Positions 16,103 through 43,307 of a DNA stretch of 64,000 nt are shown here, piece after piece; position 1 is the first letter of the stretch, and each line of letters starts with the position of its first letter. Where the stretch lies: IMG/VR virus record IMGVR_UViG_3300042554_002914; one strand, written 5' to 3'. Made by a program: the position numbers and the translations under genes. Source of the stretch: a virus (Duplodnaviria; Heunggongvirae; Uroviricota; Caudoviricetes). The notes under the pieces were generated by a model. It made no database searches and was not told where the DNA came from. It worked only from the letters and a program-made list of their open reading frames with translations.

Positions 16103-19100
16103 TTAACCTAAGCCCCTTGATTGAAGTTCATTGCTCATTTGACCAATGGAAACTCTAATCAATCCAACATCGATTCTTTCCATTGTTGGGACAGGGACAT
16201 CATAGACTTGGACATTGACGATTCCGTTTTCCAAATCTTCGACCCTGTTGATCCTTTCGTCGCAGATGACTTGGAAAGCATCAGAAGGCTTAGCACCATA
16301 AAGAGCACCTTCGTTGTAAAGTTGACCCATGACGCTGTTGCCTATAGTGACAATCTGGTTGAAGATAACTCCAAAGCCATCAATTACCGAGAAGATCTGA
16401 TTATCAAATACCCTACGGAGCGAACCATAAACAACGTTTTGGATGACGCGGGTGTTGACAAATTGGAACTTACGTTGTTCGGGGATAGCAGGGTTGATCC
16501 TAGTTCTTCCGCCCCAGATAAAGATCGCAGAAGAAGCATAGCCAGGTAGGGTCCTAGCAACGTTGCAGCCTCTGGGATTCAACAAGTTCTGTTGAGCAGA
16601 GTTGACAGAAAGTTGAACGCTAACGGCATCGACAAGTTGATATTTAGTGCCAGCTGGAGGGAATTGGAACCCTTCTGAACGATAACGTCTTAGCGCAACA
16701 CCAGCCACATACGGGGAGAGAGGAATGTACTGACCCGCTGAATTAAGGATGTGTGGGCCATAGTAGGCAATAAATCCAAAAGCGTTAAAGTAGCGTTGGC
16801 TATCCTCTAGCAAGCGTGCTACATTATCGACACCAGCCTCTACGAATACGGCCTCTGGAACTCCCGAGTTCCCTACCCCACGTAAAGCATCATCGATAAT
16901 CTCAGTGGATGTAATGGCATCAAAGTTCCACAAATTGGTTAATGGTGTTTGCTCTTCGGTTAATACAAGTTCGACTTGTGAGCCATAGCAAACATGACCA
17001 ACGGAGGTTAAATCACCGCCAAGGGAATCGGCAGGGATAACCGCCCACTCATAATTAGAGCCGTTGAAGACCACAGCAATACGATCACCAACAACTACTG
17101 GGGTTGTCCCATCAGGAGCCAAACCAGCGGCAGTAATCACGTCGAAGTAAACACCTGAGAGGTTAGTAATTCTACCTTGGATGTCCCCTTTACCAGACCC
17201 ATTCAGCAGACCAACGGCGAGAGTGTAGGGTTTGGCACCTAATAGGATACCTGGGCCTGCGGTTATGGTGCCAACAGTAACTGTGAACAAGGTTCCGGAA
17301 CCGATTACAGCAGTAGAGGCAGAAAGCAAACTTCCGGCTGTGTGCCCAAAACCAGTGGCCTTCAGAGTCACAACGGTAACAATCCCACCAGCGACAGTGA
17401 TATCAGCCGTAGCCCCACTACCACTGCCACCTGTGAGGGGGACATTTGTGTAGATGCCATTGGTGTACCCTGTACCCCCGGTAATGGCGCCAAGAGTAGC
17501 GATAGGCCCCCTGGTAGCTGTTCCGGTTGGATTGTAGGAGCCACCATTAATAGCATCGATAGCTGGAACTAAGTATGCCTGCGATGTGAAATTTTGAGTT
17601 GTAGTCGGGGCGCAAATATAGTTTTGAGTTGTAGTCTGAATATCACCCGGGTCAACCAAGTCCAAAGAAGGTAGCCAACCGGCAGAGGTGGTTTCACCGT
17701 ACGGGAAAATTAACTCTTTGCCAAGAACCTTAGAACTTCTGTTCAGGTAGATGGATACGGTGGGGTTGTCTATATTTGGTACCGGTGCTACAGATGCTCT
17801 AGCGGCCTGGCTTGCGACAATACCGCTGTTTAGACCATATTTCCTGGCTCTAATGAGTGGAATAGTGGTTAATTCAGCCAGGTTAACCGACGTCAGATTG
17901 CCACCCAATACACCCGAGTATAAAATAGTCGGTGCTGTGGAAATCGATGCAGATGGATAAATAACATAAGAACCAGACAGGTACCCCGTATAGCTGGTAG
18001 CTAGTAGGATAGTGTCATTATCCAGAACTTTGACGTAGTAGGGATTAATGGAGTTAGAGGTCGTTGCCTTTAGTAAGGTTGCAGCCCCCGCCAAAACAGT
18101 CTGAGTAAAGAAGACCTTTTGGCCATTGACTAATCCGTGTCCTTTCAGTTCAAAAGCCGCATATCCCACAGAACCACCAGGGAATGTGTAGGAACTAATA
18201 CTGGCAGAAGGGTTTAAAAGGGTTCTTGAAATAAAATTCAGCCTGTAATCCCTAGTGGAAGCCTGTAAGGTCGCAGGTAGGTGCAGGGTGTTGACGTATG
18301 TAGTCTCACCTGTGGTGTTCTGAAGGAGGTTAGAGGGTTGTCCGCTGATTTCAACGGGCCAATTCCAACTAGAAACCCCATAGGTAACAATAGCTGTAGA
18401 TCCAGTGGGAGTGCCAACCACATAAGCACCGTTCGCTGCAGCAACACCGGACCCAATAAGAGCAGTTCCACCAGCAGCTAGGACTGCAGTCAGTACAGAA
18501 GTAGCCTCTGAAGCTGTGGCAGTAATGTAGACGTATTGTGTGTTACCATCTGATGGGTAGGTGCCATACAGATTTGTATTATATGGTGGTGCTACGATGT
18601 AAACAGTCGCCGAAGTTTCACCTACACCGAACAACCCAGCAAAATCTGCACCGGCATTACTGATGGTAACTTCTTGAATGTCATATTTGACGGGCCAAAC
18701 TGCGCCATCAATGTAGAATACGCCATCATCAGATTGACCGACTACAGATTCTACTGTAAAGACGGCAGGGTCTAGAAGACCAACCTTTTCACCAGCGGTT
18801 ACTGATTCTGTAGATTGTTCTACGGCTACTTGAGGGTCATAGCCCGAAATCAAAGATTGATATGGCAAACGTCTGTAAGTAACGTCATTGCCGGTCCATT
18901 CATAGATGGTATTATCAACCAAATACTTCAAACCCATTACCAAATCTTCGGCCGGCTGGTGTGGGATATAGTTTTTATACTTATTGATATCTGTAACTAA
19001 GAACGAGCCACTATCTGCCAAAGCCAGCCACTTAAAGTTACCATCTTCGCAATGGGCCGCAGCAGCAGCTCCCACGGCAGTTCTACCTGCAGCATCAAAC

Positions 19101-20005
19101 TGCGCATATGCAGTGGGCGATAGCAGATACCCCTGGTCTTGTTGTCCGTCAAATGCAGTTCTGATGCACTGAACATAGTCTTGAGGGACCCTTTCCAGGC
19201 TAGTCTGGGCACAATCAATAGTTCCGACCACATAGCAATCGGTCATTAAGATTTTAGCAGCGCCTACAATGAATTGTTCAGGTACTACTTGGATAGTCCC
19301 GTCAAAAGTTGTAGCTGCCAGGACTGCAAATCCGCTTTCTGAATTTGTCTCAGGGCAAAGGGTATTTACTAGGCCCGACTCCCTAACATAGACGGAGCTG
19401 CTAATGCTAGGATTAGACTCAATTGCAGCAGCAAATGCGTTGACGATCGCAGATGAAATCTTACGGTTATTTACTTCGTCCCCAACGATATAACCAACGG
19501 GGATAGTAACAGGGACACCGAGCCACTCGCCATCGGCAGTATAACCAGTGGAGCCATCTCCAGCCACTAACTTTTGGCCATTAAGGATCATTTGGATATA
19601 CACCTGGTCACCAGCTTCGAGCTGGGAGGGTAATCCAGTGGAATTGATTTTGGTGCCAGAAGGTAGAAACTCAATTTCAGCAATCTGGGTTGGTGTTCCT
19701 ACTCTGACAACACGAACGTCCCCAACTTGTTGGGCATTTAGGAAAAGTTCATTTACACAATTATAGCTAAGAAGGGGGATTTTTTCGGTGGGTACTCCGC
19801 CTACTAGGGCCCTATAGTCATTTAAAGAAGTGATGACGACCGGGGTGTTAAACGGAAAGCGACTTACTGGGACAGAGTCCTCAGCCTCCACCAACATATA
19901 GGCAGTGTTAAATGTTGCGATTGGCGCGGCTGTAATATTGCCAGCGACTTCGTTTATGAATGTACCAGGGGCCCCAGGGGTGGTGCCAAAAGAGAAAGTT
20001 GCCAT
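16103..20005 (-). CDS. Tail sheath protein, 1300 aa with large insertion
   Basis: N-terminal APGTFINE; C-terminal YYGP...SPYVAG...PPAG...LLNPRGCN...IWGGRT...FVNTR. Confidence 0.92.
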   Translation of the reverse strand: MATFSFGTTPGAPGTFINEVAGNITAAPIATFNTAYMLVEAEDSVPVSRFPFNTPVVITSLNDYRALVGGVPTEKIPLLSYNCVNELFLNAQQVGDVRVVRVGTPTQIAEIEFLPSGTKINSTGLPSQLEAGDQVYIQMILNGQKLVAGDGSTGYTADGEWLGVPVTIPVGYIVGDEVNNRKISSAIVNAFAAAIESNPSISSSVYVRESGLVNTLCPETNSESGFAVLAATTFDGTIQVVPEQFIVGAAKILMTDCYVVGTIDCAQTSLERVPQDYVQCIRTAFDGQQDQGYLLSPTAYAQFDAAGRTAVGAAAAAHCEDGNFKWLALADSGSFLVTDINKYKNYIPHQPAEDLVMGLKYLVDNTIYEWTGNDVTYRRLPYQSLISGYDPQVAVEQSTESVTAGEKVGLLDPAVFTVESVVGQSDDGVFYIDGAVWPVKYDIQEVTISNAGADFAGLFGVGETSATVYIVAPPYNTNLYGTYPSDGNTQYVYITATASEATSVLTAVLAAGGTALIGSGVAAANGAYVVGTPTGSTAIVTYGVSSWNWPVEISGQPSNLLQNTTGETTYVNTLHLPATLQASTRDYRLNFISRTLLNPSASISSYTFPGGSVGYAAFELKGHGLVNGQKVFFTQTVLAGAATLLKATTSNSINPYYVKVLDNDTILLATSYTGYLSGSYVIYPSASISTAPTILYSGVLGGNLTSVNLAELTTIPLIRARKYGLNSGIVASQAARASVAPVPNIDNPTVSIYLNRSSKVLGKELIFPYGETTSAGWLPSLDLVDPGDIQTTTQNYICAPTTTQNFTSQAYLVPAIDAINGGSYNPTGTATRGPIATLGAITGGTGYTNGIYTNVPLTGGSGSGATADITVAGGIVTVVTLKATGFGHTAGSLLSASTAVIGSGTLFTVTVGTITAGPGILLGAKPYTLAVGLLNGSGKGDIQGRITNLSGVYFDVITAAGLAPDGTTPVVVGDRIAVVFNGSNYEWAVIPADSLGGDLTSVGHVCYGSQVELVLTEEQTPLTNLWNFDAITSTEIIDDALRGVGNSGVPEAVFVEAGVDNVARLLEDSQRYFNAFGFIAYYGPHILNSAGQYIPLSPYVAGVALRRYRSEGFQFPPAGTKYQLVDAVSVQLSVNSAQQNLLNPRGCNVARTLPGYASSAIFIWGGRTRINPAIPEQRKFQFVNTRVIQNVVYGSLRRVFDNQIFSVIDGFGVIFNQIVTIGNSVMGQLYNEGALYGAKPSDAFQVICDERINRVEDLENGIVNVQVYDVPVPTMERIDVGLIRVSIGQMSNELQSRGLG

Positions 20006-20179
20006 TTTATATTTAGTATTCCCCCTTTACCTAATCCTCGTACCGGCGGGGATAACTCCGGTGGTGGTGCCCGTAGGCCAAGGATTGTTTATGGACAATT
20101 AATATTTACCCACCATTGAATCGGCATTCTTTCCGGCCTGAATAGTGATGCCCCTAGCCAAAGATTGGAGGTTTTTATC

Positions 20180-20545
20180 CTATTGGTTACCAGTATCGGA
20201 ATGGATACTAGCGGCTGACCAACCGTTGTTTCTTTCTACATCACTTAAAGACAATCTGGTGTATCTCGATAAGGACTCAGCGTAAGACTCTTGAGAAGAG
20301 AAAGGGAAGAAGTCTCCAACAGAGTTTGTAACGGGGGACAGTACGGGGGATTGTTGGGTTAACCCCACAGACGTAACTGACCCAGTAACACTACCCGGGT
20401 TAAGAATTGTCCCTAAAGGGGGATTTTTTACTACAGACCATGTAGGATTATTATCTAGAACTTCCCTATATGAGAGGGAGTTTGAGTATAGAGCAAAACC
20501 CAGTCTTCTCCAGGTTGAACCAGATTGAAAAACTAGGTTTGCCAT
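20180..20545 (-). CDS. Tail protein X/LysM-like baseplate protein
   Basis: FQSGSTWRRLGFALY...YREVLDNNP...PLGTIL pattern. Confidence 0.5.
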   Translation of the reverse strand: MANLVFQSGSTWRRLGFALYSNSLSYREVLDNNPTWSVVKNPPLGTILNPGSVTGSVTSVGLTQQSPVLSPVTNSVGDFFPFSSQESYAESLSRYTRLSLSDVERNNGWSAASIHSDTGNQ

Positions 20546-20548
20546 CTA

Positions 20549-20998
20549 TCAGGTTCCTCTTTTTGCTTTTGCCATCAGGCGAGCACCAACTTCAGTACCA
20601 CGAGTTAGGGGGAAGCCATTATCCCTAGAAACTTCCTTAACTTCGTTATTAAGTTGACTCGAAGGTACAAATGGGTCTACTTCCGGGGAGTTTAACCTGT
20701 TGGAAAGTTTCTCTTGGATGGACGCCTCGATAGACTCCTTAGTGGGTTTATCCTTAATGGCAGTGCTCTCGGCTGTTTTAAGGTCGATTACAGCGGGTTC
20801 GTGTGATTCGTGTGATTCGGGCTCTAAACCAGGGGGTTCTGTGGGGCCTGGCACCATGGCTACGGGATGCTCAGGGGTTTCTGGATTGGGTGCAATTTCA
20901 GCAGCTGGATTTTCGTCCCAGGCTTCATTTACGTTAGGGGTAGTTGGGTCATCACCAACAAATTTACCGAGGGGGTCTTTAGCGCGTTGTCTTGTCAT
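20549..20998 (-). CDS. Hypothetical protein
   Basis: RAKDPLGKFVGDDPTTPNVNEAW N-terminus; tight operon packing. Confidence 0.6.
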   Translation of the reverse strand: MTRQRAKDPLGKFVGDDPTTPNVNEAWDENPAAEIAPNPETPEHPVAMVPGPTEPPGLEPESHESHEPAVIDLKTAESTAIKDKPTKESIEASIQEKLSNRLNSPEVDPFVPSSQLNNEVKEVSRDNGFPLTRGTEVGARLMAKAKRGT

Positions 20999-21000
20999 GG

Positions 21001-21411
21001 TTATTTAAGAATGTGTTTCCAGGCAATGTCAGATAATTTATCAAGGGAGCTATCTGGTACTCCCATCCATGGGCGAGCGGGCATTTTTTTAGTTCCAAAT
21101 TGGTTGAACACCCCCCATGGAGTCGTATCGACTAAGAATCTATTACCCCAAGGTCTAACCACGGCTGTGTTAAACATCTCACCGGTCTCCCTTAGGATAA
21201 ATCTAGACCCATACCCCTCGGCATCTTTTTCTTTTATGGTCTCCGGATCTAGTTTAACCCAGGGTTTACCTTCGTAGTCAGTTTCAGCATACCAATGGGG
21301 CTTATTTTCCTCCAGAAGAGCAGGAGCCCATTCCACTTTGGCAGGACCCCACCACCCTAATTTAAAGGGTTGCATAGAGCCCGGTTCCTTTAGGGTGACT
21401 TTAATTTTCAT
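21001..21411 (-). CDS. Virion morphogenesis/tail completion protein (Mu gpG-like)
   Basis: ILRETGEM and NQFGTKKMPARPWMG motifs. Confidence 0.75.
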   Translation of the reverse strand: MKIKVTLKEPGSMQPFKLGWWGPAKVEWAPALLEENKPHWYAETDYEGKPWVKLDPETIKEKDAEGYGSRFILRETGEMFNTAVVRPWGNRFLVDTTPWGVFNQFGTKKMPARPWMGVPDSSLDKLSDIAWKHILK

Positions 21412-22129
21412 TTCTTTTTCATTAGGCTCTCTTGTTCTTCGGCGTATTTTTTATTGACTTCAATCATGGCTCTAATTTTGCTCATAGGTTGAGTTTCCAA
21501 CCAATCGATAGATGAATCCCACCGTTGTTTGCATAAGTGAAACGCGACTTCAAGCCAATTTTCCACCGACAGGATATTTTCTTGGAAGATAGTTGTCACT
21601 GCCCAGTCAATTAATACTTTGAAAATTTTAGACGGGGTTTCATCGATGGCGTCGGTATTTAAGATCACCCTTAGAAGAAGCGGTAGGAAGCTCTTCTCAC
21701 CATTCCTGAGGATTTGTGCCTTATAGAAGTCTTTGGGGGTTATCTCCCTAAGGTGAAATGGCCCCCACCCGTCTATAGTTACAAGATATGAAAAGTCGTC
21801 TTGATCCTCAATTATGATTTTGGGTCAACTACAACTTCCCCCATTGCCTTGCCGACTAACTCACTGATTTTTTTAATGTCCGAGAGACGAAGATCAGCAA
21901 TTTCGTCAAAGGAAATTTTATCCTCACCGATTGTTAATCGTTCGGCCAATAGAAAGCTTTGCTTGGCTTGTTTGAATTCACCAAGTTCTTCTTCTAGGTA
22001 AATTAAATCCCTGCCGGTCATTTCCCTAATTGTGAGGGTTCGGCCGTCAGACAAAGTTTCACTATAAGTCTCAAGCCCAGTGACTGGTGTAGTCTTTACT
22101 GTGGTGGTTTCGTTGGATACGGTTCGCAT
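21408..22129 (-). CDS. Tail assembly chaperone pair: 105-aa product (21812-22129) and ~240-aa -1 frameshift product
   Basis: LTIREMTGRDL motif; slippery C-CCA-AAA at 21824-21818 just before TAA; -1 frame open to 21408. Confidence 0.75.
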
Positions 22130-22362
22130 TTGGTTTTTATTGAGGGATACTCAGTGAGTTTTACCCTACTTGCCACCAGATGCCTTTCCAATTCTGCATC
22201 ACCTTTCCCAGCAGGAAGTTTGAGATATAGATGGTTAGCTGTCTGCCAGCTTTTTTCAGCCCCATCTAAATCCCCCATATCGACCCTATCGCTAACATCA
22301 TCAATCCAACTACGGATAACTTCTTTGCGAAACTGTGGGTCTAAGGGTAGCGGAAATGGCAT
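22096..22362 (-). CDS. Hypothetical protein
   Basis: 88-aa ORF, co-oriented. Confidence 0.55.
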   Translation of the reverse strand: MPFPLPLDPQFRKEVIRSWIDDVSDRVDMGDLDGAEKSWQTANHLYLKLPAGKGDAELERHLVASRVKLTEYPSIKTKCEPYPTKPPQ

Positions 22363-22414
22363 GTTGCTGTTTGGGTTGGAACGTAGTAACTCCTATGGGC
22401 TTAGTGCCCAATAG

Positions 22415-22612
22415 TCAAAGGGCTTTAAGCATTTGGACAACTTGATCTTCAGAGTAGTAAAGAGCATTATATGCGCAATCGACTGAAGAAGGGATGAATT
22501 TATCTTTTTTATCGAAGGGTTGCGGCATATAGAAAGTACCGAGGGACCCGGGATGCGCAATAACGATGGCAGAAACAGCGCGATTCTTTTTCAGTTTTGG
22601 TTGTGTTGTCAT
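22415..22612 (-). CDS. Hypothetical protein
   Basis: 65-aa ORF, co-oriented. Confidence 0.45.
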   Translation of the reverse strand: MTTQPKLKKNRAVSAIVIAHPGSLGTFYMPQPFDKKDKFIPSSVDCAYNALYYSEDQVVQMLKAL

Positions 22613-22653
22613 GGTGTTTTTGTGATTAGTTTTAGTTAAAGGTAAGTTAAAAG

Positions 22654-25599
22654 CTAAATGAGTCCTTTCTGGATTGAGTCATACCGGAAAGTTAGCTTAC
22701 TGACAGCACCCAATTCAAATAGTTGAGTCATTGAGTATTCAACCCCAGGTGGTTCATCACCCCCAGACTGATTGGATGGAGTTACCGTATTCTCTTTTGG
22801 GGACTTCCGGAGCCTATCATCAATGGCAACCGAGGAGAAAAACGCACGGCTCAATGGTAATTCGGGTATTTCCATCGCGTAGTGGAATAAACACCAAGTG
22901 AAAAGGTGGGCAATCTGGAATAACACGGCAAACTGCTCTGCGTATTTTTCCGGTGTCATAAAATGCAGTTCATCATGGATGCTAATTATGAATCGGTAGG
23001 GGATCTTAAACTCTTCGGCCAGCCATGCCACGGCAGTTAAGGTGATAGACAGGATTTCGGACCCTGAAGCTTGAATTGCCCAGTTGGTCCTCCCCGTCTT
23101 AAAATCATTGCCGACTGCAGATGGCATCATGGCCGTTGAGATTTTTGTCCCCAAACACGGCAACCGGGGGGTCCCTGGCCCCATGGAAATTCTTTCCATC
23201 ATATTGAAAGCACCTGAGTCTGATCCACCTTCGTATTTGCCGAACCTTAAGACCCCCTTCTTAGACGCAATAGCTTTAAGGGCAAAAGTTTTGACCGCAT
23301 CTTCGTCTTTATCGGGGAAGGTCATTCGGATTGGGTTACTAAGGGCTCTGACGCTCCCGCCATACAAGGTAGCAAATCCTACAATCTTGGCCAGGTCTCT
23401 AGCTATTTTAAGCATAGTGTCTTTTTCCTTATCAATTGGAGACACCCAGTAGCCATCACGGGAGCGGCAATCATCGCTGTCTTCAGGTTTTTGCTCATAT
23501 TTATAGCAAATCCCCAGGGTCTTATCCCAAATTAGACCATCATACAATTCCGGGAAGATCGCTCGGGCCAATGCAGTGTGAGGATCAGTACCATTCTCTT
23601 TAGAACCAGAAAGCACGTTATACCCCATGGGCGAACACCCAATGAAACCGCCTTCCCATTTATCACTATAGATAGACGCAATCTGCATCTCTTGGCCGTC
23701 ATAGTCCGCACTAATGATTTTCCACCCCTCCGGGGCCTGTACACGGGTCTTAAGCTCGGTTCCGATGCGCCAGCTCTTGGTAGAGCACATGGTGGCCATA
23801 AGGCTCTCTACGACCCTACGGGTGACGGTTCCGTGGCAGACGATCTCTGGCAGGGTAACGAGGTTAGGTTTTCCCAGGGGGTTGGTGGCCCCCATGACAA
23901 TACGGCTTTTAACTCGGCTGCGAACTGATGTCCAAAAACTAATGGCATTAGCAATTTCCAGTGCCCTTTTTGCCTCGGGTAAGTCACTACTTAGTCTTCC
24001 AACTTCCATGTGAGTAACGAACTCTTTAGAGAATAGGCCGCCTACGTTTTCGCCGGGTTTCTTAGGGTGTGGGATTCTATCCAGGGTGCCGTCTCCCGTA
24101 GTAAAACACCAACCTTGTCCATCTTCCCATATGATGGGGGTGCCTTCCCATTTTAGTTTCAATAGGAAATGCGATAGTTTGCTTTTAACACCAATCTCCT
24201 TATCAGGGTCCTTCTTATAGGGCCTCATCCAAGTGGGGACCCATGCGTAGACACCCTTGATAGACTTCACTTCCCAATCTAATTGGCGAATCCACGGGTC
24301 TTTTGACACCCATTTACTTGCCTCTTTGACCCCAATTTCCTTTGTTTCGTGGCTATCTACTATTTCCTTCCATGAATTGAAAGTATCCCATAGCAAAGTT
24401 TTACAAAGACCGGTCATTTCCTGGTTATGGCTGTTATAGACTTCTTCAGCCCCTTGCACCCATTCAAACCAGTTGTCCACTAGCGGCACCACAGACCCAT
24501 TCAGGTGGTAATGCCCGCAAAGCCCCACCATTGATGGTGTACTATCAAGGTATTTTGGCCATAGTGCCTGGAATAACTCTGAAGTATAATAAGCGTCCTT
24601 AATGGCGTAATCAACTGTCTCGGCTAGTACCTTATTGATTTCGGAAAGCGTATCAGCGGTGACAAAAATGTTCCTAATTTCCTTGTCGGAATCTGATAGT
24701 GGCTTTACATCGCCATCGTCAAAGAAAAATTCTTTTGCCCGTTGAACATGGAAGTTGTATGTTTTAACTAGGGAGTTTGTGCTCCCCCTGTCAAGCCATT
24801 CCGGAGAATACTTAAGTTTCCGCTTCTCATCATCATCAAGCAAATCAAAGTCCTTTTCAGCCAGCGCATAAAGCCACCTCTGACCTGATGCTAAGCCTGA
24901 TACGCCAACGTGCGCTGACAGGGTGTCAAAGTAGAAATTTTCCGGTTTGGTAAAATCTAGCGAATAACCCTCTTGGGCCCTCACACGGTCATAGGATATA
25001 TTGTGGCCAATGACAAGCCTGTCAGTCCCAATTGGAATAAGTTTAAATTGATCCCAATCATTTTGGGGAATATCAAGGTCAATCAGCTCGGCGGCTAACC
25101 AAATATAGGCGGCCCTATCACTTAGAGCAGTTCCAATAATGGGAAAGGCCCCACCTTTAACGAAAGTTTCCGTGTCGAATGTAAATACTTCTTCCTCGGG
25201 GTAGGGTACTTTTCTAGTTTGCCATTGCTTGTTGGGGCCATCCCCGATAAGCTCATACCGTGTCCACCCCGGTTGAAATACTAAATCGTTGATTGACGGG
25301 ATCTTTGGTAGGGCACATTTGGCAAATTTATTGCCTAGTTCCTTATAGCGTCCAACTTGATTTTCTGCAATCTTTTCAAAGTGGTCGCGGATATTGTTAG
25401 CCTTTAGGTTAGGCAGGGGGACTGGCCCATCATAGATGCTTTCGGGATAATCAACGGGGGCCTCAATCCCAAATTTCCTCAAAAGGGAAACGGCCTGGTC
25501 CTTTTGCTTGCTATTCATTTCGGGCCTATAGTCAGATCCAAAAATCTTTAGGTGCAAGTCATCGGACAAGACCGGGTAGCCAAGGGCAGTAGTTTTCAT
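22654..25599 (-). CDS. Family A DNA polymerase, mitochondrial Pol-gamma-like
   Basis: Exo motifs FDTE, IGHNISYDRVR, DTLSAHVGVSG, YAIKD; GTVTRR, RIGTELKTRVQAPEG, ADYDGQE, RDLAKIVGFATLYG, NWAIQASG, ISIHDE. Confidence 0.9.
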   Translation of the reverse strand: MKTTALGYPVLSDDLHLKIFGSDYRPEMNSKQKDQAVSLLRKFGIEAPVDYPESIYDGPVPLPNLKANNIRDHFEKIAENQVGRYKELGNKFAKCALPKIPSINDLVFQPGWTRYELIGDGPNKQWQTRKVPYPEEEVFTFDTETFVKGGAFPIIGTALSDRAAYIWLAAELIDLDIPQNDWDQFKLIPIGTDRLVIGHNISYDRVRAQEGYSLDFTKPENFYFDTLSAHVGVSGLASGQRWLYALAEKDFDLLDDDEKRKLKYSPEWLDRGSTNSLVKTYNFHVQRAKEFFFDDGDVKPLSDSDKEIRNIFVTADTLSEINKVLAETVDYAIKDAYYTSELFQALWPKYLDSTPSMVGLCGHYHLNGSVVPLVDNWFEWVQGAEEVYNSHNQEMTGLCKTLLWDTFNSWKEIVDSHETKEIGVKEASKWVSKDPWIRQLDWEVKSIKGVYAWVPTWMRPYKKDPDKEIGVKSKLSHFLLKLKWEGTPIIWEDGQGWCFTTGDGTLDRIPHPKKPGENVGGLFSKEFVTHMEVGRLSSDLPEAKRALEIANAISFWTSVRSRVKSRIVMGATNPLGKPNLVTLPEIVCHGTVTRRVVESLMATMCSTKSWRIGTELKTRVQAPEGWKIISADYDGQEMQIASIYSDKWEGGFIGCSPMGYNVLSGSKENGTDPHTALARAIFPELYDGLIWDKTLGICYKYEQKPEDSDDCRSRDGYWVSPIDKEKDTMLKIARDLAKIVGFATLYGGSVRALSNPIRMTFPDKDEDAVKTFALKAIASKKGVLRFGKYEGGSDSGAFNMMERISMGPGTPRLPCLGTKISTAMMPSAVGNDFKTGRTNWAIQASGSEILSITLTAVAWLAEEFKIPYRFIISIHDELHFMTPEKYAEQFAVLFQIAHLFTWCLFHYAMEIPELPLSRAFFSSVAIDDRLRKSPKENTVTPSNQSGGDEPPGVEYSMTQLFELGAVSKLTFRYDSIQKGLI

Positions 25600-25613
25600 C
25601 GGCGTTAGGTTGA

Positions 25614-25649
25614 TTGACTGTGGGCTATTTGACTGTGGGCTATTTGACT
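25614..25649. repeat. Short tandem repeat (TTGACTGTGGGCTAT)x2.4
   Basis: Seen directly, upstream of the polymerase start. Confidence 0.7.
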
Positions 25650-25658
25650 ATTTAGCCA

Positions 25659-25982
25659 TTAGGACACGGAGTCCAAAGGTGGTGGTACGAGGCTGTCGGC
25701 AACTGGGGAAAGAATCGCACTAAAACCATTGCCAAATATACGTTTTGAAGGCTGCGCCCATCGTGGTTGGTTTCCTAGCCAACTATGGACGTAATAGCTG
25801 AAAGTTACGGGCCTGCCTAAAGTGTCACTGGGGCCATTGCCTGATGTGCCTAAGAAGTAAGCAGAGTAAATGTTGCTCCACCCCATGTAAGGCTTGGCTA
25901 TGATGTTGCCGTATTCACTTACTGACTCCTCCCCAATAATGTCAGCTACGGCTTTTGCCATTACTACTGTAAGTGGTACCAT
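25659..25982 (-). CDS. Hypothetical protein
   Basis: 107-aa ORF with GAGG upstream. Confidence 0.5.
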   Translation of the reverse strand: MVPLTVVMAKAVADIIGEESVSEYGNIIAKPYMGWSNIYSAYFLGTSGNGPSDTLGRPVTFSYYVHSWLGNQPRWAQPSKRIFGNGFSAILSPVADSLVPPPLDSVS

Positions 25983-26887
25983 TCTTCCTCTCTTTCGATT
26001 TCTTCAATTTTACCCCTTACCCAAGTTGATTCCGTATCCTCTGGGTCGGCATCTAGTTGGAAATTAATTGATTGGTTTAGTTTTTGAAAGCTTACTTCAA
26101 AATCCTGAAGACCTGAACTTATGTAAACATCCTTTCTATTTCTCTTGTAGATGTCAAATACGTCATCAATTTTTGAAAATTCATGGGGGCGGCATTCCGG
26201 GTGCTGCTGCCACTTTCTCATTTCGAAGAATGAAAATGGCTCATCGATTTCCCATGATTTATCTTTGCCTTCAAAAAGTCTAATAAGGGCGTCCCTCTTC
26301 CACCAATTGCTTACCCTATCGATATAATACTCCCATGCAGTTTCGTCAGTCAAGTAAGTATCACAATCTTTACGGATTGACTCAAGTTCTTTTTTACCGT
26401 CGTTTATGACATCCATGGTAGCTTCAGGGAGCACACCAAATAGGTACTCAGGGCGGCACTCATTGATGCGTTCATACACACTGGGGAACAAAACCGAGTA
26501 GCACATTAGCTTATAGTCGTCAGAATCCCCACAAATTAAATCTAAGATGGTCTCAAAGATTGATATTGACGTTGCGATTTGCTTTTCTAGGTCTGGCTCG
26601 TGCTCTTCTTCCCGGTCTGGCAGTCCTCTTTCACTTCTAAGTTCACGAATTTCACTCATCAACCCCTCAATATCAAGCTTTAGCTTTTTGTTTTCCCTAC
26701 CCATTTCTCTTTCTAGCCGTGCCTTGTAGGCTTCCACTTCGTAGAATAGGTTTGTAACTTTTTCTTTTAGATAATCAAGAGATAATGCCGTCTTATTATC
26801 TAGTTGGGTGCGAGCATTAAAGTCTTTTTCAACACTGCGAATACTGGAGAGAACGCTGGTTTTTAATTTGAGGATCGAATCGTTCAC
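25964..26887 (-). CDS. Hypothetical coiled-coil protein
   Basis: 307-aa ORF. Confidence 0.65.
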   Translation of the reverse strand: MNDSILKLKTSVLSSIRSVEKDFNARTQLDNKTALSLDYLKEKVTNLFYEVEAYKARLEREMGRENKKLKLDIEGLMSEIRELRSERGLPDREEEHEPDLEKQIATSISIFETILDLICGDSDDYKLMCYSVLFPSVYERINECRPEYLFGVLPEATMDVINDGKKELESIRKDCDTYLTDETAWEYYIDRVSNWWKRDALIRLFEGKDKSWEIDEPFSFFEMRKWQQHPECRPHEFSKIDDVFDIYKRNRKDVYISSGLQDFEVSFQKLNQSINFQLDADPEDTESTWVRGKIEEIEREEEWYHLQ

Positions 26888-26888
26888 G

Positions 26889-27458
26889 TTAAATTGGTTT
26901 GATGGTTGCTTTTAGTTTGTTTTCTGGTTCTCCGGGTTCAGTTGTATCTGATGGCCGGATTATAAAGCTGAATTTCTTTTCAGGGTCTGATAATAGGTGA
27001 AAATCACCCATAAAATGTTTGCCTTCAGAAGATAACAAAAATGAATTACCCGGTGTTGGCGGAGAACACAAGGCAATGTCACCTTCTAAATCGGGGTCAG
27101 CCTCTTCGATGGCTATTACTAATTCCCTGTAAATGGCAGAGGTCTTAGCCAGATCCTCATCAGTGGTTATTTCAGCCCTGACTTCATCCTGTACGGCCTC
27201 TAAGCGAGATTCTAGACCAGTGTCAAGCTGGATGGTGAAGATGGCTCCGTCATTTTCCGACTCAAACATGACTTCCTCAGGTTCAAATTCGCAATCTTCG
27301 GGCTCTTGATCTGTGAAATCAAACTCCAGAAGCGAGTAGAAAGCTTCTTTAAGTGTGTCACCGTCTGGGCCACCCAGATAGTTGGCTATGGCATAGAAGA
27401 TTTTGGGGTTTGCTAACAATCTGGAGACAGGGTATACAATTGACATAGTTCGGTCCAT
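26889..27458 (-). CDS. Hypothetical acidic protein
   Basis: 189-aa ORF; promoter TTTACT-N16-TATACT at 27467-27494. Confidence 0.65.
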   Translation of the reverse strand: MDRTMSIVYPVSRLLANPKIFYAIANYLGGPDGDTLKEAFYSLLEFDFTDQEPEDCEFEPEEVMFESENDGAIFTIQLDTGLESRLEAVQDEVRAEITTDEDLAKTSAIYRELVIAIEEADPDLEGDIALCSPPTPGNSFLLSSEGKHFMGDFHLLSDPEKKFSFIIRPSDTTEPGEPENKLKATIKPI

Positions 27459-27517
27459 CTACTCTTAGTATAGCAGGGAGGCCCCGTAAGTAAACCCCCC
27501 TTGTGTTTTACCCTGTT

Positions 27518-28576
27518 TCACTCTGGGTTTTCTCTAACTTGTTGGATTCTTTGCTGGGCGATGTCGAGGTACGATTCCTCCATTTCAATGCCAATAAAGT
27601 TGAATCCCTCCAGTAGGGAAGCCTTTCCAGTTGTTCCAGAGCCTAAGAATGGGTCAAGTACGGTACCACCGGGCGGCGTAATTAAGCGGCACAAGTAACG
27701 CATTAAATTTGTTGGTTTGACTGTGGGGTGATTGTTGGTTTCACCATTGAGACCTTCGTTTCTGTCTTTTTTATTAGCTTTGGCGCAGTAGAAGAACCGG
27801 GCGGCGCTGCCCCCGTTGTCGTCGTGGCCACGCACTGTGGATTCACCACCGTACACGCCATAGGCGTTTGATTTGCCCTTGCCCGTGCCACGATGAGCAG
27901 CTTTAGCCGGACCCGTCTGTGGAAACAACCCCACCACCTCGTCGCTGCCATCCGTGATCAGGTTAGCGGGCCATCTACCGGTGAGCCCATCGCCGGTCCT
28001 GGTTCCGCGTTCCATGCCATAGCTGCCATAAACCTTGTTCTCGCCGCCATAAGGGCGCCCAAGTCCGTCATTCGTCCCCACCCTGCACCCATCAATGTTG
28101 ATAGCCCCGGTGCCGTGCTCCAGCACGTTTGCGGCCACGGTGCCCTCTGAGATGGGCTTGCGGGCCATGGTGATCGGCTCTAGGGCGGGCTTTAAGGAGC
28201 CTCCCCAGCCATCACGCACAGTCTCACCGTTGCTGTCCTTGATGTAGCCCACCTTGTTGAATCCACTTCCGTAGACCCACGCAATCATATCACGAATCTC
28301 AAACCCCGCATCCTCAATCCGCACCGCCATCCGGTGCTGCGTGCGCGTGCCAGCAAATGACAGTAAATGGCCACCAGGCTTCAGCACCCGCAGGCACTCT
28401 TTCCAAATATCAACACTTGGCACATCATAGTCCCATTTTTTACCCATAAACGCCAGGCCATAGGGCGGATCAGTACAAATAGCATCGATACTATTGTCGG
28501 GCATTTCCTTTAATACATCAAGGCAATTGCCATGGTACAGTTGATAGCGGTCTTCGGAAACGTAAGGCTTAATCAT
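27518..28576 (-). CDS. DNA N6-adenine/N4-cytosine methyltransferase (beta class)
   Basis: TDPPY, HPTVKP and LDPFLGSGTT motifs. Confidence 0.93.
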   Translation of the reverse strand: MIKPYVSEDRYQLYHGNCLDVLKEMPDNSIDAICTDPPYGLAFMGKKWDYDVPSVDIWKECLRVLKPGGHLLSFAGTRTQHRMAVRIEDAGFEIRDMIAWVYGSGFNKVGYIKDSNGETVRDGWGGSLKPALEPITMARKPISEGTVAANVLEHGTGAINIDGCRVGTNDGLGRPYGGENKVYGSYGMERGTRTGDGLTGRWPANLITDGSDEVVGLFPQTGPAKAAHRGTGKGKSNAYGVYGGESTVRGHDDNGGSAARFFYCAKANKKDRNEGLNGETNNHPTVKPTNLMRYLCRLITPPGGTVLDPFLGSGTTGKASLLEGFNFIGIEMEESYLDIAQQRIQQVRENPE

Positions 28577-30633
28577 GGTAGTTTAATCTCATTTAGGTTT
28601 GCAATTTTAGCCCCTTTCGCACCGGGTTTCCCCAGCTTTACAGAAAGGTCAATTTTTGTTGGTTTTTTCTTTGTTGATACCCACTCGACGGTAAATGGTT
28701 TCTCCCCAAAATACATAAAGACGGCCCCTTCCGGCAACCATTGCTTGCCCGTGCTTGTGGTTCTACACAGGGTTTCACCATCCATGGCCATAGCCCTTAG
28801 TTGACCATCAACCATAAATACAGCCAGGTATTTGCGTCCCGAGACGTATGCTTCCGGTTTTGCAAGCACCACAGGTGAATACCCTGTGGAAATTACACCC
28901 TTAAACGAAGCAGGCACCTTCTTTAGCATTCCGTCCTCGCACACTAGGATTAGCTTGTCGGTAGACCCCATGGCCAGGCAACCCTTGGGCCCTTTAGACT
29001 GTTCAATCACACCTTTCTTCATGTCGATTTTTAAGAAACGTGGTTTTGCTATTGGGGTGGTGTCTGAGGGGGTAGTGGCCGGAGGGAGAGACCCTGCGTT
29101 GTCTACTTTGGACCGGACCCCTACGGCAACAGGAACATCAATCAAAGGGCTCCTGCGGGGGACCCCATATTGCTTGTTGATCCTAGCAAGTTCCTCCAAC
29201 ATGTATGACTTTCGGGCACTGACATTATTGGCTTTGTCCCCCACCAGGGACTCTAGCCTATTGATGTCAGCCAATAGCTCATTTTTCTCACAAGACATCA
29301 AATCAAAGTCTAGGCACGTTAATTGCCGCAACCTCATTTCTAAAATGGCATCAGCTTGTTGCTCGGTGAATTTAAGCGGTGCTGACATTAGGGACTGCTT
29401 GGCTTCAGATTTGCCATTTGCGGCACGAATGCGCTTAATGACTAGGTCCATACGGTCAATAGCCTTTAGGAGACCATCAACGATGTGTAATCTTTTGTTT
29501 TTTGCCTCCAGTTCATGTTCAAATTTAACATCAAGCCGATCCAATCTCCATTGGACCCATCGTTGGATGATTTGTACCGGTGATAACTCAACGGGCTTAA
29601 ACCCATCGATAACCAAGGTTTTAGCTGAGTATTTGCAATCAAGGTCTGTATATGTGTATAGCAACTGCTTTACCAAATTAATATCAGCACCAGGTTTGAG
29701 GACCACCACCAGCCTATCCCCACTAATATCACTTTCATCTGTGATTTCGGCGATCCCTTCAATACGTCCTTTTTCTAACTCACTCTTGATCTGCTCACCA
29801 AGTTTCTCTGGATTGGTGCCAGGTGGCAAACAAGTGAAAGTCAAGGTGGATCGATCCCTGGCTTTTCCGCCCCTTTTCTGAATACCAGTCTCAACACAAG
29901 CCACGCAGCGTATTCCCCCGATTCCAGTACGGGTATAAGCATCTAGTTGCTCGTCTTGGACGATTTGGGTGCCAGTTGGGAAATCGGGAATTAGAGATAG
30001 GCTGGCTTTTTTTATATTATCAAGGTGGGCCTTTTCGGTAGGGGCATCCTTGCAAATTAACTTAATGGCTTCTACGATGGAGCGTAGACTGTGGGGAGCC
30101 AAACGGGTAGCAAAACCCACGGCAATTCCTGAGTCACCGTTTAGCAAAACGGTTGGCAAAGAAGTATTAAACCTGATGGCCTCCCGCTTACTGCCATCAT
30201 AGTTTGATTTAGTTTCCCACACTTCCCGGTCTTGTAAAAGAAGTTCCACTGCGGAAATTCGTAGTCTATTTTCTAGGTACCTTTCTGCTGAGGGGGAGTC
30301 AACTGTGCTTCCAATATTTCCATGACAATCAATCCAAGGGACATTATTGTTCCAAGGAGTAGCCATGTTAATGAGGGCCCCGTATGCAGAGCCATGGGGA
30401 TGGTAATAGGCACTAGTTAGGCCCGTAGTTCGGGCACACTTTACATACGGTTTATTCGGAAGCAATCCCTCTTCAATCATTGTCTGAAGGATGCGTCTTT
30501 GAACTGGCTTTAGCCCATCGCAAATGTCCGGTATCGATCTCCCGATAAGCACGGCCATACTATAGCTCAAATAGTCTTCCTTGAGCTGATCGACGAGATT
30601 GACTTCTGTGATTTTTGGCCTAGTTTTAGTCAT
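28573..30633 (-). CDS. gyrA: Type IIA topoisomerase subunit A (GyrA/ParC-like)
   Basis: DGLKPVQRRIL, YHPHG, ERY catalytic Tyr, LLNG.SGIAVG.AT, PDFPTG, QADAILEMRL. Confidence 0.88.
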   Translation of the reverse strand: MTKTRPKITEVNLVDQLKEDYLSYSMAVLIGRSIPDICDGLKPVQRRILQTMIEEGLLPNKPYVKCARTTGLTSAYYHPHGSAYGALINMATPWNNNVPWIDCHGNIGSTVDSPSAERYLENRLRISAVELLLQDREVWETKSNYDGSKREAIRFNTSLPTVLLNGDSGIAVGFATRLAPHSLRSIVEAIKLICKDAPTEKAHLDNIKKASLSLIPDFPTGTQIVQDEQLDAYTRTGIGGIRCVACVETGIQKRGGKARDRSTLTFTCLPPGTNPEKLGEQIKSELEKGRIEGIAEITDESDISGDRLVVVLKPGADINLVKQLLYTYTDLDCKYSAKTLVIDGFKPVELSPVQIIQRWVQWRLDRLDVKFEHELEAKNKRLHIVDGLLKAIDRMDLVIKRIRAANGKSEAKQSLMSAPLKFTEQQADAILEMRLRQLTCLDFDLMSCEKNELLADINRLESLVGDKANNVSARKSYMLEELARINKQYGVPRRSPLIDVPVAVGVRSKVDNAGSLPPATTPSDTTPIAKPRFLKIDMKKGVIEQSKGPKGCLAMGSTDKLILVCEDGMLKKVPASFKGVISTGYSPVVLAKPEAYVSGRKYLAVFMVDGQLRAMAMDGETLCRTTSTGKQWLPEGAVFMYFGEKPFTVEWVSTKKKPTKIDLSVKLGKPGAKGAKIANLNEIKLP

Positions 30634-31429
30634 TAGTAATTTCTTCCCTTAGCGAGGGATCAATGCCCCTAGCAGTTTGATATCGAGTGAGGCCGCCAGG
30701 TGTTGATATTTTTCCCGTTACTAAGCAGCGTACGCGCCTAGAATTAGTTTTTTTAGCCATATCGGAAAAATGCAGGGGATTCTTGGCCAATGTCACACGC
30801 GCTGATCGCCTAGCATGATTGCTAAAAAACTCAGGGTCTTTGCTTAGTTTAGTTTGATTAGCTTTTTCATATGCTTGTTTCCTCTTTTCTGGAGTCATGG
30901 CCTTTTTCATCGCCAAATACCTACTTTCTTTTTCTTCAGGGGATAACTTGGCCATCGCCGCTCGACCCCCTGCTTGTTTCTGCTCCCGGGTTTGACTAAG
31001 TGCCCCCTTTCTAGAAAACTCTGCTTTTTCTTCAGGGGATAACTTGGCCATCGCCGCTCGACCCCCTGCTTGTTTATGCTCCCGGGTTTCTTCTCTGGGG
31101 AGACCTTTCCATCTAATTATTCCGGGAATGGCTTTAACCCCCATCCACTTTCGCCAAAGAGATAAAATCTCCGCCTCAAGGTAAGATTTCTCCCAGCCCC
31201 AAATACAAGGGTGGTTACACTCCTCTGACTGCAAAACACCTTGAATAGCGTGGTGCTCTTTGAGCAGAAGAACGGTATTACTTCCCCCTAGGCATTTTGG
31301 GACAGGGTAATGACAAGACTCCCAATCCCCGTGGCAAGGATTACCAGGTTCCAGCCGGTTGTCAAAGTAATAGTCTTCGCACCACCTTACAAATTGCTCC
31401 TGAGTCGGCATCATTTTAGCATTAGTCAA
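30626..31429 (-). CDS. Free-standing HNH-like endonuclease with basic repeats
   Basis: HYPVPKCLGGSNTVLLLKEHHAIQG; duplicated KQAGGRAAMAKLSPEEK. Confidence 0.6.
   Translation of the reverse strand: MTNAKMMPTQEQFVRWCEDYYFDNRLEPGNPCHGDWESCHYPVPKCLGGSNTVLLLKEHHAIQGVLQSEECNHPCIWGWEKSYLEAEILSLWRKWMGVKAIPGIIRWKGLPREETREHKQAGGRAAMAKLSPEEKAEFSRKGALSQTREQKQAGGRAAMAKLSPEEKESRYLAMKKAMTPEKRKQAYEKANQTKLSKDPEFFSNHARRSARVTLAKNPLHFSDMAKKTNSRRVRCLVTGKISTPGGLTRYQTARGIDPSLREEITND
30928..31089. repeat. 66-bp intragenic direct repeat (30928-30993, 31024-31089)
   Basis: One mismatch, 96-bp period. Confidence 0.85.
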
Positions 31430-32016
31430 GGTAAAAAATCCAGATAGTCAAGGATCGTTTCCTTGGCTTCCGATGCTTTTACCCGAACAGGAGTAAAACT
31501 TTTGCCGTACTCAGTTGAAAACGAATTAAGATACTCCTCAAGGTGCCCATCCAAACGTAAAGCGTCTTCTTCAGATTCATATCTGCCTTGGGGGTCATAC
31601 GGGAAATCCCTACTAAGAAGAAAATTCAAATGCACCACACCGTCATTAGTAGAGTGGTTTACAAACCCCTTGGCCGCCTCATCGACGTAACTGGATATCA
31701 CACCGTGATAATAGGTGGCATAAAACCCGGCAAGCAATACCGGGGAGTCAGTGACAATGTACCTCACGGTGCCATACAGGAAAGACTCATAATGGGATTG
31801 TTTACCTAGTAGGTACAATTGGTCGTACTTCCCGATTTTCCTCTTTGTGTAAGCCCAGTGTTTGACATATTCGCGAACAAGTTCTGCGCTTTCGCCTTGT
31901 TTCTTGAGTTCGCTGTAAATGTCGGGCGCAGCAGTGGATTTACCCGTACCTGGGCCACCAAATAGATTAATTACGGTAGTTTGCATGGCGAATGTGGTTT
32001 GTGAAGATGGTGTCAA
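31426..32016 (-). CDS. P-loop kinase/ATPase (NadR/AAA_28-like); probable start ATG 31986
   Basis: INLFGGPGTGKS, ELVREYVK, IVTDSP. Confidence 0.8.
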   Translation of the reverse strand: MTPSSQTTFAMQTTVINLFGGPGTGKSTAAPDIYSELKKQGESAELVREYVKHWAYTKRKIGKYDQLYLLGKQSHYESFLYGTVRYIVTDSPVLLAGFYATYYHGVISSYVDEAAKGFVNHSTNDGVVHLNFLLSRDFPYDPQGRYESEEDALRLDGHLEEYLNSFSTEYGKSFTPVRVKASEAKETILDYLDFLP

Positions 32017-33610: not shown

Positions 33611-34723
33611 TTACCCCAAGACGTTCAAATCGGGATACAAACTCAAAAGCTCCTCCTTCGAAAGAACATCATACTCATCTTCCGGTTGCCAGATAATCTC
33701 AAGGGCGACTAGGTCATCAGGTGTGATAGATCCTAGGGCTACCAGATTTGACTTTAGGCCCTCATGTGAGTCAGATGGCCTTAGGTTAAGATCCCCGTTC
33801 GTAACTACCAGGACATTCACAAGGATGTATTCGTTGTCTTGGGTTTTTTCGTGAGCCTTTTCCTTACTCTTTGAGAGACGACCGTCAACGTTCGTCAAAG
33901 TTTCTTCCGACGCTCGGGAACGCTCTTCCATGGAGAACTGGTTAAAGAGATCTTCCGCATTGTCAATGGACTCCCTGTTCTTATCACTCCAAGCGTAGAT
34001 GACCTTATCAGGGTGCCGGAGAAGAGCAAGGGTTGTTTCTTGTAGGATCTTGGCAAGGCCGTATGAACTGTCGGTATCTCCTTGTTCGGCCATCCGAATT
34101 AGGTCAGATTGAATGTCTTTGGCTGACGCAAGTAGGGCCACTCGTTGACGCACTACTGTGAGTTTCTTATACTTTTCCTTTTGGGTGCTTAACCACGGGC
34201 CTACAAAGTCTTCCCACCCTCCGCACAAAAGAATGCCTGCAATAATTACCACACCCATTGAAGCAAGCAGAGTCAAAAGAACCACCGGATTGGCAGGTTG
34301 TTGACTGACTGTGGTCACCCGCGAAGGCAAGGAGTATGGGATAGCCGGTGCAACATTTGGAGTCAAGTCAGGCATGACGATGATGTTAGTGCTCGAATGA
34401 CTTGGGGGGTTGTAAGAGGGTCTGGGGACAGGTGAAGGAGTGTATGTTCTCGGTGCAGAGTAACTATGGCTGGGACGGCTGATACTTGGGGAGCTGGGGC
34501 GACTATAGCTAGGGGAAGGGCTACGACGGCTGTAGCTCGGGGTGCTAGGACGACTATAGCTCGGCCTACTATAGCTCGGGGAGCTTGAGCGGCTGCGAAA
34601 GCTACTACCGCCGATGCGACCAGCAGATGCAGCAAAAGCGGGGGACGCCGTCAATAGCATCGCAACCGTGAGCGTCAGAATTATTGTCTTGAGTGATTTG
34701 GTGTTCATGGGTTTCATTTTCAT
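33611..34723 (-). CDS. DUF1517 / FLAP1-like membrane protein
   Basis: Signal peptide, GRIGGSSF, one TM helix, VALLASA..IQ.DL, LQETTLALLRHP, FNQFSMEERS, EIIWQP...LSKEELLSLYPDL. Confidence 0.85.
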   Translation of the reverse strand: MKMKPMNTKSLKTIILTLTVAMLLTASPAFAASAGRIGGSSFRSRSSSPSYSRPSYSRPSTPSYSRRSPSPSYSRPSSPSISRPSHSYSAPRTYTPSPVPRPSYNPPSHSSTNIIVMPDLTPNVAPAIPYSLPSRVTTVSQQPANPVVLLTLLASMGVVIIAGILLCGGWEDFVGPWLSTQKEKYKKLTVVRQRVALLASAKDIQSDLIRMAEQGDTDSSYGLAKILQETTLALLRHPDKVIYAWSDKNRESIDNAEDLFNQFSMEERSRASEETLTNVDGRLSKSKEKAHEKTQDNEYILVNVLVVTNGDLNLRPSDSHEGLKSNLVALGSITPDDLVALEIIWQPEDEYDVLSKEELLSLYPDLNVLG

Positions 34724-43061: not shown

Positions 43062-43307
43062 TTAAGATTCAAATAGGGTAATTTGATCAGGGTCAGCAAG
43101 CATGGCCTTTGGTGCTTTTACTTTTTCCGAAATTAGTTGCCGGTTAATCTCATCACACCATGTTTTATAAGGGTAATACTCCCTCAACCCAAACGGATAA
43201 GCCTCCCGGAGTTTGCTGCGGAGGATTTTCATGTCGGTAGTTCCAACTTCGGAGATAACACGGGAGATTATCGGAGCGGCTCGCTCTCGCCAGGTTAGGT
43301 ATTTCAT
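43062..43307 (-). CDS. Conserved hypothetical protein
   Basis: LREAYPFG.R..YPYK.W..E. Confidence 0.6.
   Translation of the reverse strand: MKYLTWRERAAPIISRVISEVGTTDMKILRSKLREAYPFGLREYYPYKTWCDEINRQLISEKVKAPKAMLADPDQITLFES

Follow-up and report, generated by a model that had tools for sequence, protein, structure and literature searches.

Does a tailed phage replicate its DNA with a polymerase of the mitochondrial type, and what would such an enzyme say about the origin of the mitochondrial replicase? The question is raised by a 64,000-nucleotide stretch of the Caudoviricetes record IMGVR_UViG_3300042554_002914, the whole of which is called the window in what follows. It carries an uninterrupted open reading frame (ORF) of 981 codons on its minus strand (22654..25599), read here as the gene for a family A DNA polymerase of the DNA polymerase gamma (Pol gamma) type. 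An original prediction, made from the nucleotides and their translations, had called it a mitochondrial-type replicase, rare of its kind, in a contractile-tailed phage. Our conclusion, to which we give a probability of about 0.9, is that the ORF encodes the replicative, single-chain Pol-gamma-type polymerase of an uncultured, myovirus-like jumbo phage of about 280 kb that is related to Synechococcus phage S-CBWM1.

Assignment to the Pol gamma family

Translation of the window gives an ORF with an ATG start and zero internal stops. Rfam places eight group I introns at 4927-9518 of the window, so that the intron array reported near the polymerase is real; the polymerase gene itself has no intron. 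The five motifs that had been quoted as POLG/Mip1-like are all present in the translation: GHNISYDRVR (residues 198-207), DTLSAHVGVSG (225-235), WLDRGSTNSL (268-277), GTVTRR (590-595) and RIGTELKTRVQAP (611-623).

Profile searches point the same way. The Pfam family DNApol_Exo (PF18136), the exonuclease domain of the mitochondrial polymerase, matches residues 61-350 at 2e-61, spanning profile positions 6-282 of 282, and DNA_pol_A (PF00476) matches residues 836-894 at 1.9e-10. PHROG 22619 (DNA polymerase) matches at 1.7e-223. A search of PDB chains at E<0.01 returned 14 distinct sequences, every one a Pol gamma, with the best scores for yeast Mip1 (4.7e-98) and for mouse and human POLG (about 1e-95); no T7 gp5 or Pol I chain is among these matches.

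The protein was modelled with AlphaFold2 from a 52-sequence alignment, giving a mean predicted local distance difference test score (pLDDT) of 93.6 and a predicted template modelling score (pTM) of 0.92. The top 35 Foldseek matches to the model are human, mouse and yeast Pol gamma, with template modelling (TM) scores of 0.73-0.81; the next tier, comprising phage G20c Pol I, Klenow, Bst and Pol theta, reaches only 0.33-0.40. Sequence, fold and the phylogeny below agree, and robustly so, that the enzyme is of POLG/Mip1 type and not of PolA or T7 gp5 type. The Pol gamma subfamily is cluster 2 of the family A DNA polymerases in the scheme of Czernecki et al. 2023 (PMC10201439).

Domains and catalytic residues

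The chain divides into three parts, all on the minus strand. The 3'-5' exonuclease domain is the region of the PF18136 match (residues 61-350; 24550..25419), and its motif columns are invariant in 52 sequences: Exo I is FDTETF (D142, E144), Exo II is GHNISYDR (D204) and Exo III is YAIKD (Y331, D335). A spacer, or linker, follows (approximately residues 351-560; 23920..24549). The polymerase domain (approximately residues 561-981; 22657..23919) contains motif A, ADYDGQEMQ (D632, E637), motif B, RDLAKIVGFATLYGG (R734, K738, F742, Y746), and motif C, SIHDE (D876, E877). Thus all catalytic residues of Exo I-III and of motifs A-C are present, in columns that are invariant or nearly so in the 52-sequence alignment.

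The spacer, approximately 200 amino acids (aa) long, aligns collinearly with that of yeast Mip1 and is modelled with high confidence. The distance between anchor positions 442 and 511 is 71 aa here, whereas a yeast enzyme has 123 aa and a fish POLG 258 aa. By alignment, both the vertebrate-type accessory-interacting spacer expansion and the fungal C-terminal extension (200-256 aa) are absent from the window polymerase. The accessory-interacting expansion does not define the family, because fungal members are also without it. The window enzyme thus has a Mip1-like architecture in minimal form.

At the site that determines dideoxynucleotide (ddNTP) use in family A enzymes, the reference residues are F762 in Pol I, F667 in Taq and Y526 in T7 gp5. 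The window enzyme has F742 there, the equivalent of human POLG Tyr951, and by analogy it is predicted to discriminate against dideoxynucleotides in the way that E. coli Pol I does. Phe is also found in the S-CBWM1 and A-HIS lineages, and Tyr in the S-TIM5-like lineage, in the Mic1-like lineages and in opisthokonts, a distribution on which the paper describing Mic1 agrees (PMC7156551).

A lineage-specific insertion of approximately 49 aa occupies the fingers (residues 681-729; 23413..23559), between a conserved TDPH helix and the motif B helix in the alignment. The window protein has 65 aa between H674 and K738, a length that it shares with proteins P0003 and P0009. P0011 and P0068 have 51-53 aa there, and most other members, opisthokonts and the S-CBWM1-like P0122 among them, have 16 aa. 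The insertion is missing from P0035, P0103, P0122 and every opisthokont. Insertions unrelated to it are found at this position in A-HIS-like and other lineages, which makes the site an insertion hotspot. In the model the insertion forms a small beta unit with strands at 689-692, 696-701 and 718-721 (pLDDT approximately 88-92).

Phylogeny and the link to the mitochondrial enzyme

A family A phylogeny had been named with the original prediction as its check, a grouping with PolA or T7-like enzymes being the outcome that would count against it. The tree was inferred with IQ-TREE under LG+C20+F+G4 with posterior mean site frequencies (PMSF) and a quick search, using support values from the Shimodaira-Hasegawa-like approximate likelihood ratio test (SH-aLRT). 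Its 64 rows include five outgroups: T7 gp5, a T7-like Pseudomonas phage enzyme, Klenow, a mycobacteriophage Pol I and a Xanthomonas phage PolA. A second tree of 146 rows, made with FastTree, agrees with it. The Pol gamma family, window protein included, is separated from the five outgroups with a support of 100 (IQ-TREE) and 98 (FastTree), where the IQ-TREE values come from the quick search and the outgroup branches are very long, at 2.7-4 changes per column. No grouping with PolA or T7-like enzymes was seen.

Within the family, the window protein joins the environmental protein P0003 (98), and these form a clade with S-CBWM1 at 100 in the IQ-TREE tree. That S-CBWM1-type clade is nested in a viral clade of 34 rows with S-TIM5, A-HIS1 and A-HIS2 (99). 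The opisthokont clade, whose named members are Fonticula, fish, chytrids, yeast and a basidiomycete, is separate at 100. Cultured phage Mic1 groups with the environmental proteins P0158, P0165, P0178 and P0234 (97), and this group together with P0184, P0220 and P0153 forms an unresolved basal polytomy beside the opisthokonts; the sole reason for calling these basal environmental proteins viral is that some of them group with Mic1. The proteins of Mic1 (L006), P0178, P0234, P0158, P0165, P0184, P0220 and P0153 are short for Pol gamma. A further set from short metagenome contigs (P0176, P0223, P0230, P0243, P0209 and P0224; approximately 970-1040 aa) makes up a subclade inside the opisthokont clade, located between the Fonticula-plus-animal group and the fungi.

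Over 841 well-occupied columns, the window protein has a mean identity of 32.3% to seven named opisthokont POLG sequences, whereas the Mic1-like and basal proteins have 39.5-43.7% to the same set. The signatures ADVDSQELW, NYSRIYG and HDE.R are common to the Mic1-like and basal proteins and to opisthokonts. The window enzyme is thus derived within a large radiation of viral Pol gamma enzymes, and it is no near relative of the opisthokont enzyme. It had been thought to bear on the origin of the opisthokont mitochondrial replicase. Membership of the Pol gamma family stands; lying deep in the viral clade, at approximately 32% identity versus 40-44% for Mic1-like proteins, the window protein therefore has only an indirect bearing on mitochondrial origins.

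Probable replication role and proposed partner helicase

The closest relative genome, G001, is a complete IMG/VR record of 279,339 bp with terminal repeats, whose polymerase is 98% identical to that of the window. At least 11 IMG/VR contigs, G001 among them, carry copies with 94-99% identity; the contigs come from several samples. G001 has one DNA_pol_A match, which is the Pol gamma gene, and family searches of this genome found no match to DNA_pol_B or Pol III alpha. Being the sole recognisable DNA polymerase in G001, the enzyme is therefore most likely the replicase. Its single chain combines a proofreading exonuclease at the N terminus, a short Mip1-like spacer and a polymerase domain at the C terminus, and no catalytic carboxylate is missing. 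The polymerase most likely acts as a stand-alone and processive enzyme like yeast Mip1; a vertebrate-type accessory subunit is not expected, because the accessory-interacting expansion is missing.

Its likely partner at the fork is a D5-like primase-helicase of superfamily 3 (SF3) encoded by the phage itself, as the co-distribution of the two genes suggests. In G001 three group I introns (Rfam 58-83 bits) interrupt the primase-helicase gene, which is locus L023 (5412-8413 on G001:C1, minus strand, approximately 50 kb before the window start). Its exons match phrog_25243 (annotated as DNA primase; 5.9e-54 and 2.8e-44). In a search of 50,697 phage records the exons find only S-CBWM1, A-HIS1, S-TIM5/54/61/66 and Mic1, exactly the phages that have Pol gamma, and in A-HIS1 the primase-helicase gene adjoins polg.

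The exons of G001 gave no Pfam match and no PDB sequence match, and the helicase was placed via PHROGs, unsplit homologues and fold search only. Unsplit environmental homologues of approximately 660 aa match DUF5906 at the Pfam threshold; they contain a Walker A motif, a Walker B motif of acidic type and a motif C with Asn. The best fold matches of one modelled unsplit homologue (pLDDT 78) are African swine fever virus (ASFV) PrimPol, the SaPI5 primase-helicase and poxvirus D5/E5, all SF3. DUF5906 itself had no match in G001 because the three introns cut the helicase gene.

Family searches of G001 also gave no match to DnaB_C or Toprim_2 (both with positive controls elsewhere), Helicase_C, Prim-Pol, D5_N or Photo_RC (psbA). 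T7-type RNA_pol (PF00940) had no match in G001 and none in the control genomes, so that this search had no positive control. A mitochondrial-type replisome combines Pol gamma with a Twinkle or T7 gp4-like helicase of superfamily 4 (SF4, the DnaB family) and a single-subunit T7-like RNA polymerase; the SF4 primase-helicase was not found in G001. From the co-distribution and the one adjacency we infer a replisome of a Pol gamma-type polymerase with a D5-like primase-SF3 helicase, and not of Pol gamma with Twinkle.

Weighing the evidence

Several points count against reading the ORF as the replicase of this phage type with the partner proposed. The polymerase, exonuclease and processivity functions are predicted from conserved residues and a modelled fold. 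The helicase pairing is drawn from co-distribution in phages that share ancestry and from the adjacency in A-HIS1, and the helicase gene is that of the relative G001 and not of the window's own genome. DUF5906 scores of the homologues are 26.6-29.7 against a threshold of 27.6 bits, and the TM scores of the helicase fold matches are low (0.26-0.31). Divergent proteins could have escaped those family searches of G001 that gave no match. A cyanobacterial host is suggested by the relatives and by a DUF1517 gene in the window.

A family A polymerase could also serve as an accessory or repair enzyme while the host replisome or another phage polymerase replicates the genome, much as bacterial Pol I is an enzyme of repair and processing, and no clamp, clamp loader or single-stranded DNA-binding protein (SSB) was identified near the polymerase gene. 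We regard this as very improbable, given that no other recognisable DNA polymerase gene occurs in the complete G001 genome, that the primase-helicase is kept alongside Pol gamma in every cultured phage that has Pol gamma, and that the structural relatives Mip1 and POLG are replicases. The probability is close to nil that the resemblance to Pol gamma is superficial and the enzyme T7 gp5-like or Pol I-like. Family A polymerases all have motifs A, B and C in common, and the DNA_pol_A match is limited to residues 836-894; however, the T7-like or Pol I-like identity is refuted by the PDB search at E<0.01, which lists no chain of either type, by the fold comparison (TM 0.8 to Pol gamma versus 0.33-0.40 to Pol I) and by the branch of support 100 that divides the window enzyme from all five T7/PolA-type outgroups.

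The remaining alternative accepts a Pol-gamma-type enzyme and concerns its history: the viral Pol gamma genes, that of the window included, may be phage captures of eukaryotic nuclear POLG and so be uninformative on mitochondrial origin. Outgroup rooting gives the unresolved basal polytomy, in which opisthokonts and Mic1-like lineages stand beside the large viral clade, and therefore leaves the direction of transfer unsettled; the outgroup branches are also very long. We nonetheless think a capture unlikely. Viral and environmental diversity far exceeds that of the opisthokont clade, which it brackets. Eukaryotes are not hosts of cyanophages, and the viral enzymes are simpler, having neither the accessory-interacting expansion nor the fungal C-terminal extension.

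Relatives and abundance

The nearest cultured phage is the myovirus S-CBWM1, whose polymerase is 55% identical over its full length and is already annotated as DNA polymerase gamma. The two share a gene order of gyrA-like gene, two hypotheticals, polymerase, small genes, tail completion and a large sheath-like protein. The myovirus S-TIM5 likewise has an annotated Pol gamma gene (PMC7156551). Pol gamma was previously listed in the siphoviruses A-HIS1, A-HIS2 and Mic1 and the myoviruses S-TIM5 and S-CBWM1 (PMC7156551). Its presence in a contractile-tailed phage is therefore not the novelty that had been supposed, S-TIM5 and S-CBWM1 being precedents published since 2012 and 2018. Megablast of window positions 20000-30000 against the 50,697 phage records gave zero matches.

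Nor is the enzyme type rare, as the original prediction held. A word-indexed search found at least 120 clusters (at the 90% identity level) with at least 60% identity to the window polymerase; JGI labels many of them DNA polymerase gamma 1, and their contigs reach 264 kb. An exhaustive search of 1.84 billion representatives (50% identity) yielded 1325 matches at E<=1e-3, of which 444 reach E<=1e-30. In IMG/VR, just two short peptide patterns led to 246 confirmed loci.

Among 185,579 prokaryote species, each represented by one genome, three Pol gamma loci were found, every one on a contig of a metagenome-assembled genome (MAG): L025 (CALGUV010000039.1), L027 (CALGUV010000157.1) and L026 (RGVZ01000390.1). 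Probably these are phage contigs that were binned with a bacterium. The scan thus gave no evidence of a cellular or prophage copy, and no clue to the host. This result fits the published view that no bacterium carries a Pol gamma gene (PMC7156551). Two of the MAG loci, each at the end of its contig, come from a bin with the label Microbacteriaceae and have approximately 50% identity to the window protein.

Phage and gene neighbourhood

The window's genes support the claim of a contractile tail, with tail-sheath domain, baseplate wedge, portal and tail-completion genes; all genes given in this section are on the minus strand. A protein of 1300 aa (16103..20005) has a C-terminal tail-sheath domain (phrog_17610, 4.5e-43; phrog_23, 3.2e-23). 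It is unusually long for a sheath-like protein: tail-sheath profiles match its final 220 or so residues only, and for its middle part the matches are to profiles of tail fibres or baseplate wedges. In S-CBWM1 the corresponding protein has the annotation concanavalin A-like lectin/glucanase. The baseplate wedge protein (623-3703) is further evidence of a contractile tail. Other structural genes encode a head protease, the portal and the tail-completion protein, and a metallophosphoesterase gene is also present.

Ahead of the polymerase start codon there is no obvious Shine-Dalgarno sequence. A 15-bp direct repeat, AGTCAAATAGCCCAC, read from the sequence on the minus strand, occurs there in 2.4 copies (25614..25649) and ends 15 bp upstream of the polymerase ATG. 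Upstream of the polymerase are two hypothetical genes, one encoding a coiled-coil-like protein of 307 aa (25964..26887; homologue of S-CBWM1 gp76, BLASTP 3e-19) and the other a protein of 189 aa (26889..27458; homologue of gp75, BLASTP 1e-22). Neither protein has a Pfam or PHROG match, and an accessory-subunit role for this conserved pair would be speculative. A DNA methyltransferase gene (27518-28576; phrog_67, 5.1e-81) lies between them and the gene for a GyrA-like type II topoisomerase subunit (28573..30633; phrog_551, 7.9e-95), which is 51% identical to S-CBWM1 gp73. At the methyltransferase position S-CBWM1 has a small ORF only.

Elsewhere in the window are two thymidylate-kinase-like genes (31426-32016, phrog_2107, 5.7e-11; 62764-63477, phrog_761, 8.1e-31) and a class I aminoacyl-tRNA synthetase gene of Trp/Tyr type (43304-44473; Pfam tRNA-synt_1b, 3.8e-64), with a weak match to the TyrRS C-terminal domain. 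No tRNA gene was found in the 64-kb window. The DUF1517 protein (33611-34723; 8.6e-56) belongs to a cyanobacterial and plastid family, and would hint at a cyanobacterial host.

Implications

Four points are new to a modest degree: the setting in a jumbo genome, the insertion in the fingers, a clean co-distribution of Pol gamma with an SF3 primase-helicase, and the finding that Mic1-like lineages, and not the window's clade, are nearest to the opisthokont enzymes. We found no description in the literature of Pol gamma in a phage larger than 200 kb. The phage Pol gamma family gains a jumbo-genome member, and is seen to be large and diverse in environmental viral DNA. For the question of mitochondrial origin, Mic1-like lineages are a better subject than the S-CBWM1-like clade. 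That the polymerase travels with an SF3 and not a Twinkle-like primase-helicase argues against the derivation of the whole mitochondrial replisome from one such phage. As a compact, single-chain and confidently modelled Pol gamma homologue, the protein could become a tractable bacterial-virus model of the enzyme.

A wider scenario is offered tentatively, and we would sooner bet against it than for it. Pol gamma may be the mark of a very large phage radiation, for the most part uncultured, which extends from siphoviruses of 55 kb to jumbo myoviruses of 280 kb and in which it is paired with a D5-like SF3 primase-helicase. Opisthokont mitochondria might have taken the polymerase alone from the Mic1-like branch, adding a T7-like Twinkle and an RNA polymerase of separate origin. 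The window enzyme would then be the first Pol gamma seen in a jumbo phage, and the fingers insertion would give its lineage a docking surface of its own for partners in the replisome.

Comparison with known systems

T7 gp5 resembles the window enzyme in being a phage family A replicative polymerase with a fused proofreading exonuclease. It differs in its separation in the tree (100), in giving no PDB sequence match, and in its partner, a gp4-type DnaB-family helicase not being detected in G001.

Closer are the other phages with Pol gamma. S-TIM5, A-HIS1 and A-HIS2 share the viral clade (99), with 31-36% identity, and the same primase-helicase family. The S-TIM5 type has Tyr at the motif B site where the window enzyme has Phe (PMC7156551), and the A-HIS type has its own distinct insertion at the fingers site. 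Microcystis siphovirus Mic1, with P0158, P0165, P0178, P0234 and P0184, is likewise viral and of the Pol gamma family; these lineages differ in being nearest to opisthokont POLG (40-44%, versus 32% for the window protein). The Mic1 Pol gamma gene is split by an intron (PMC7156551), whereas that of the window is uninterrupted.

The closest match is S-CBWM1 gp77 (MG450654; Aokuangvirus), which is alike in its 55% identity, the clade at 100, gene order, the motif B Phe (PMC7156551) and a contractile tail. Its genome, at 139 kb, is about half the size of that of the window's phage type (279 kb in G001). The S-CBWM1-like P0122 is without the fingers insertion of approximately 49 aa, and the window also has a methyltransferase gene where S-CBWM1 does not.

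With yeast Mip1 and human and mouse POLG the window enzyme shares the three-part architecture, a fold at TM 0.73-0.81 and all catalytic residues of Exo I-III and Pol A-C. It has no vertebrate spacer expansion, no fungal C-terminal extension and no mitochondrial targeting context. Compared with human POLG it has Phe for Tyr951 and an additional fingers insertion. The apparent partner helicase also sets the phage system apart from mitochondria, being of the D5-like SF3 type here and not Twinkle.

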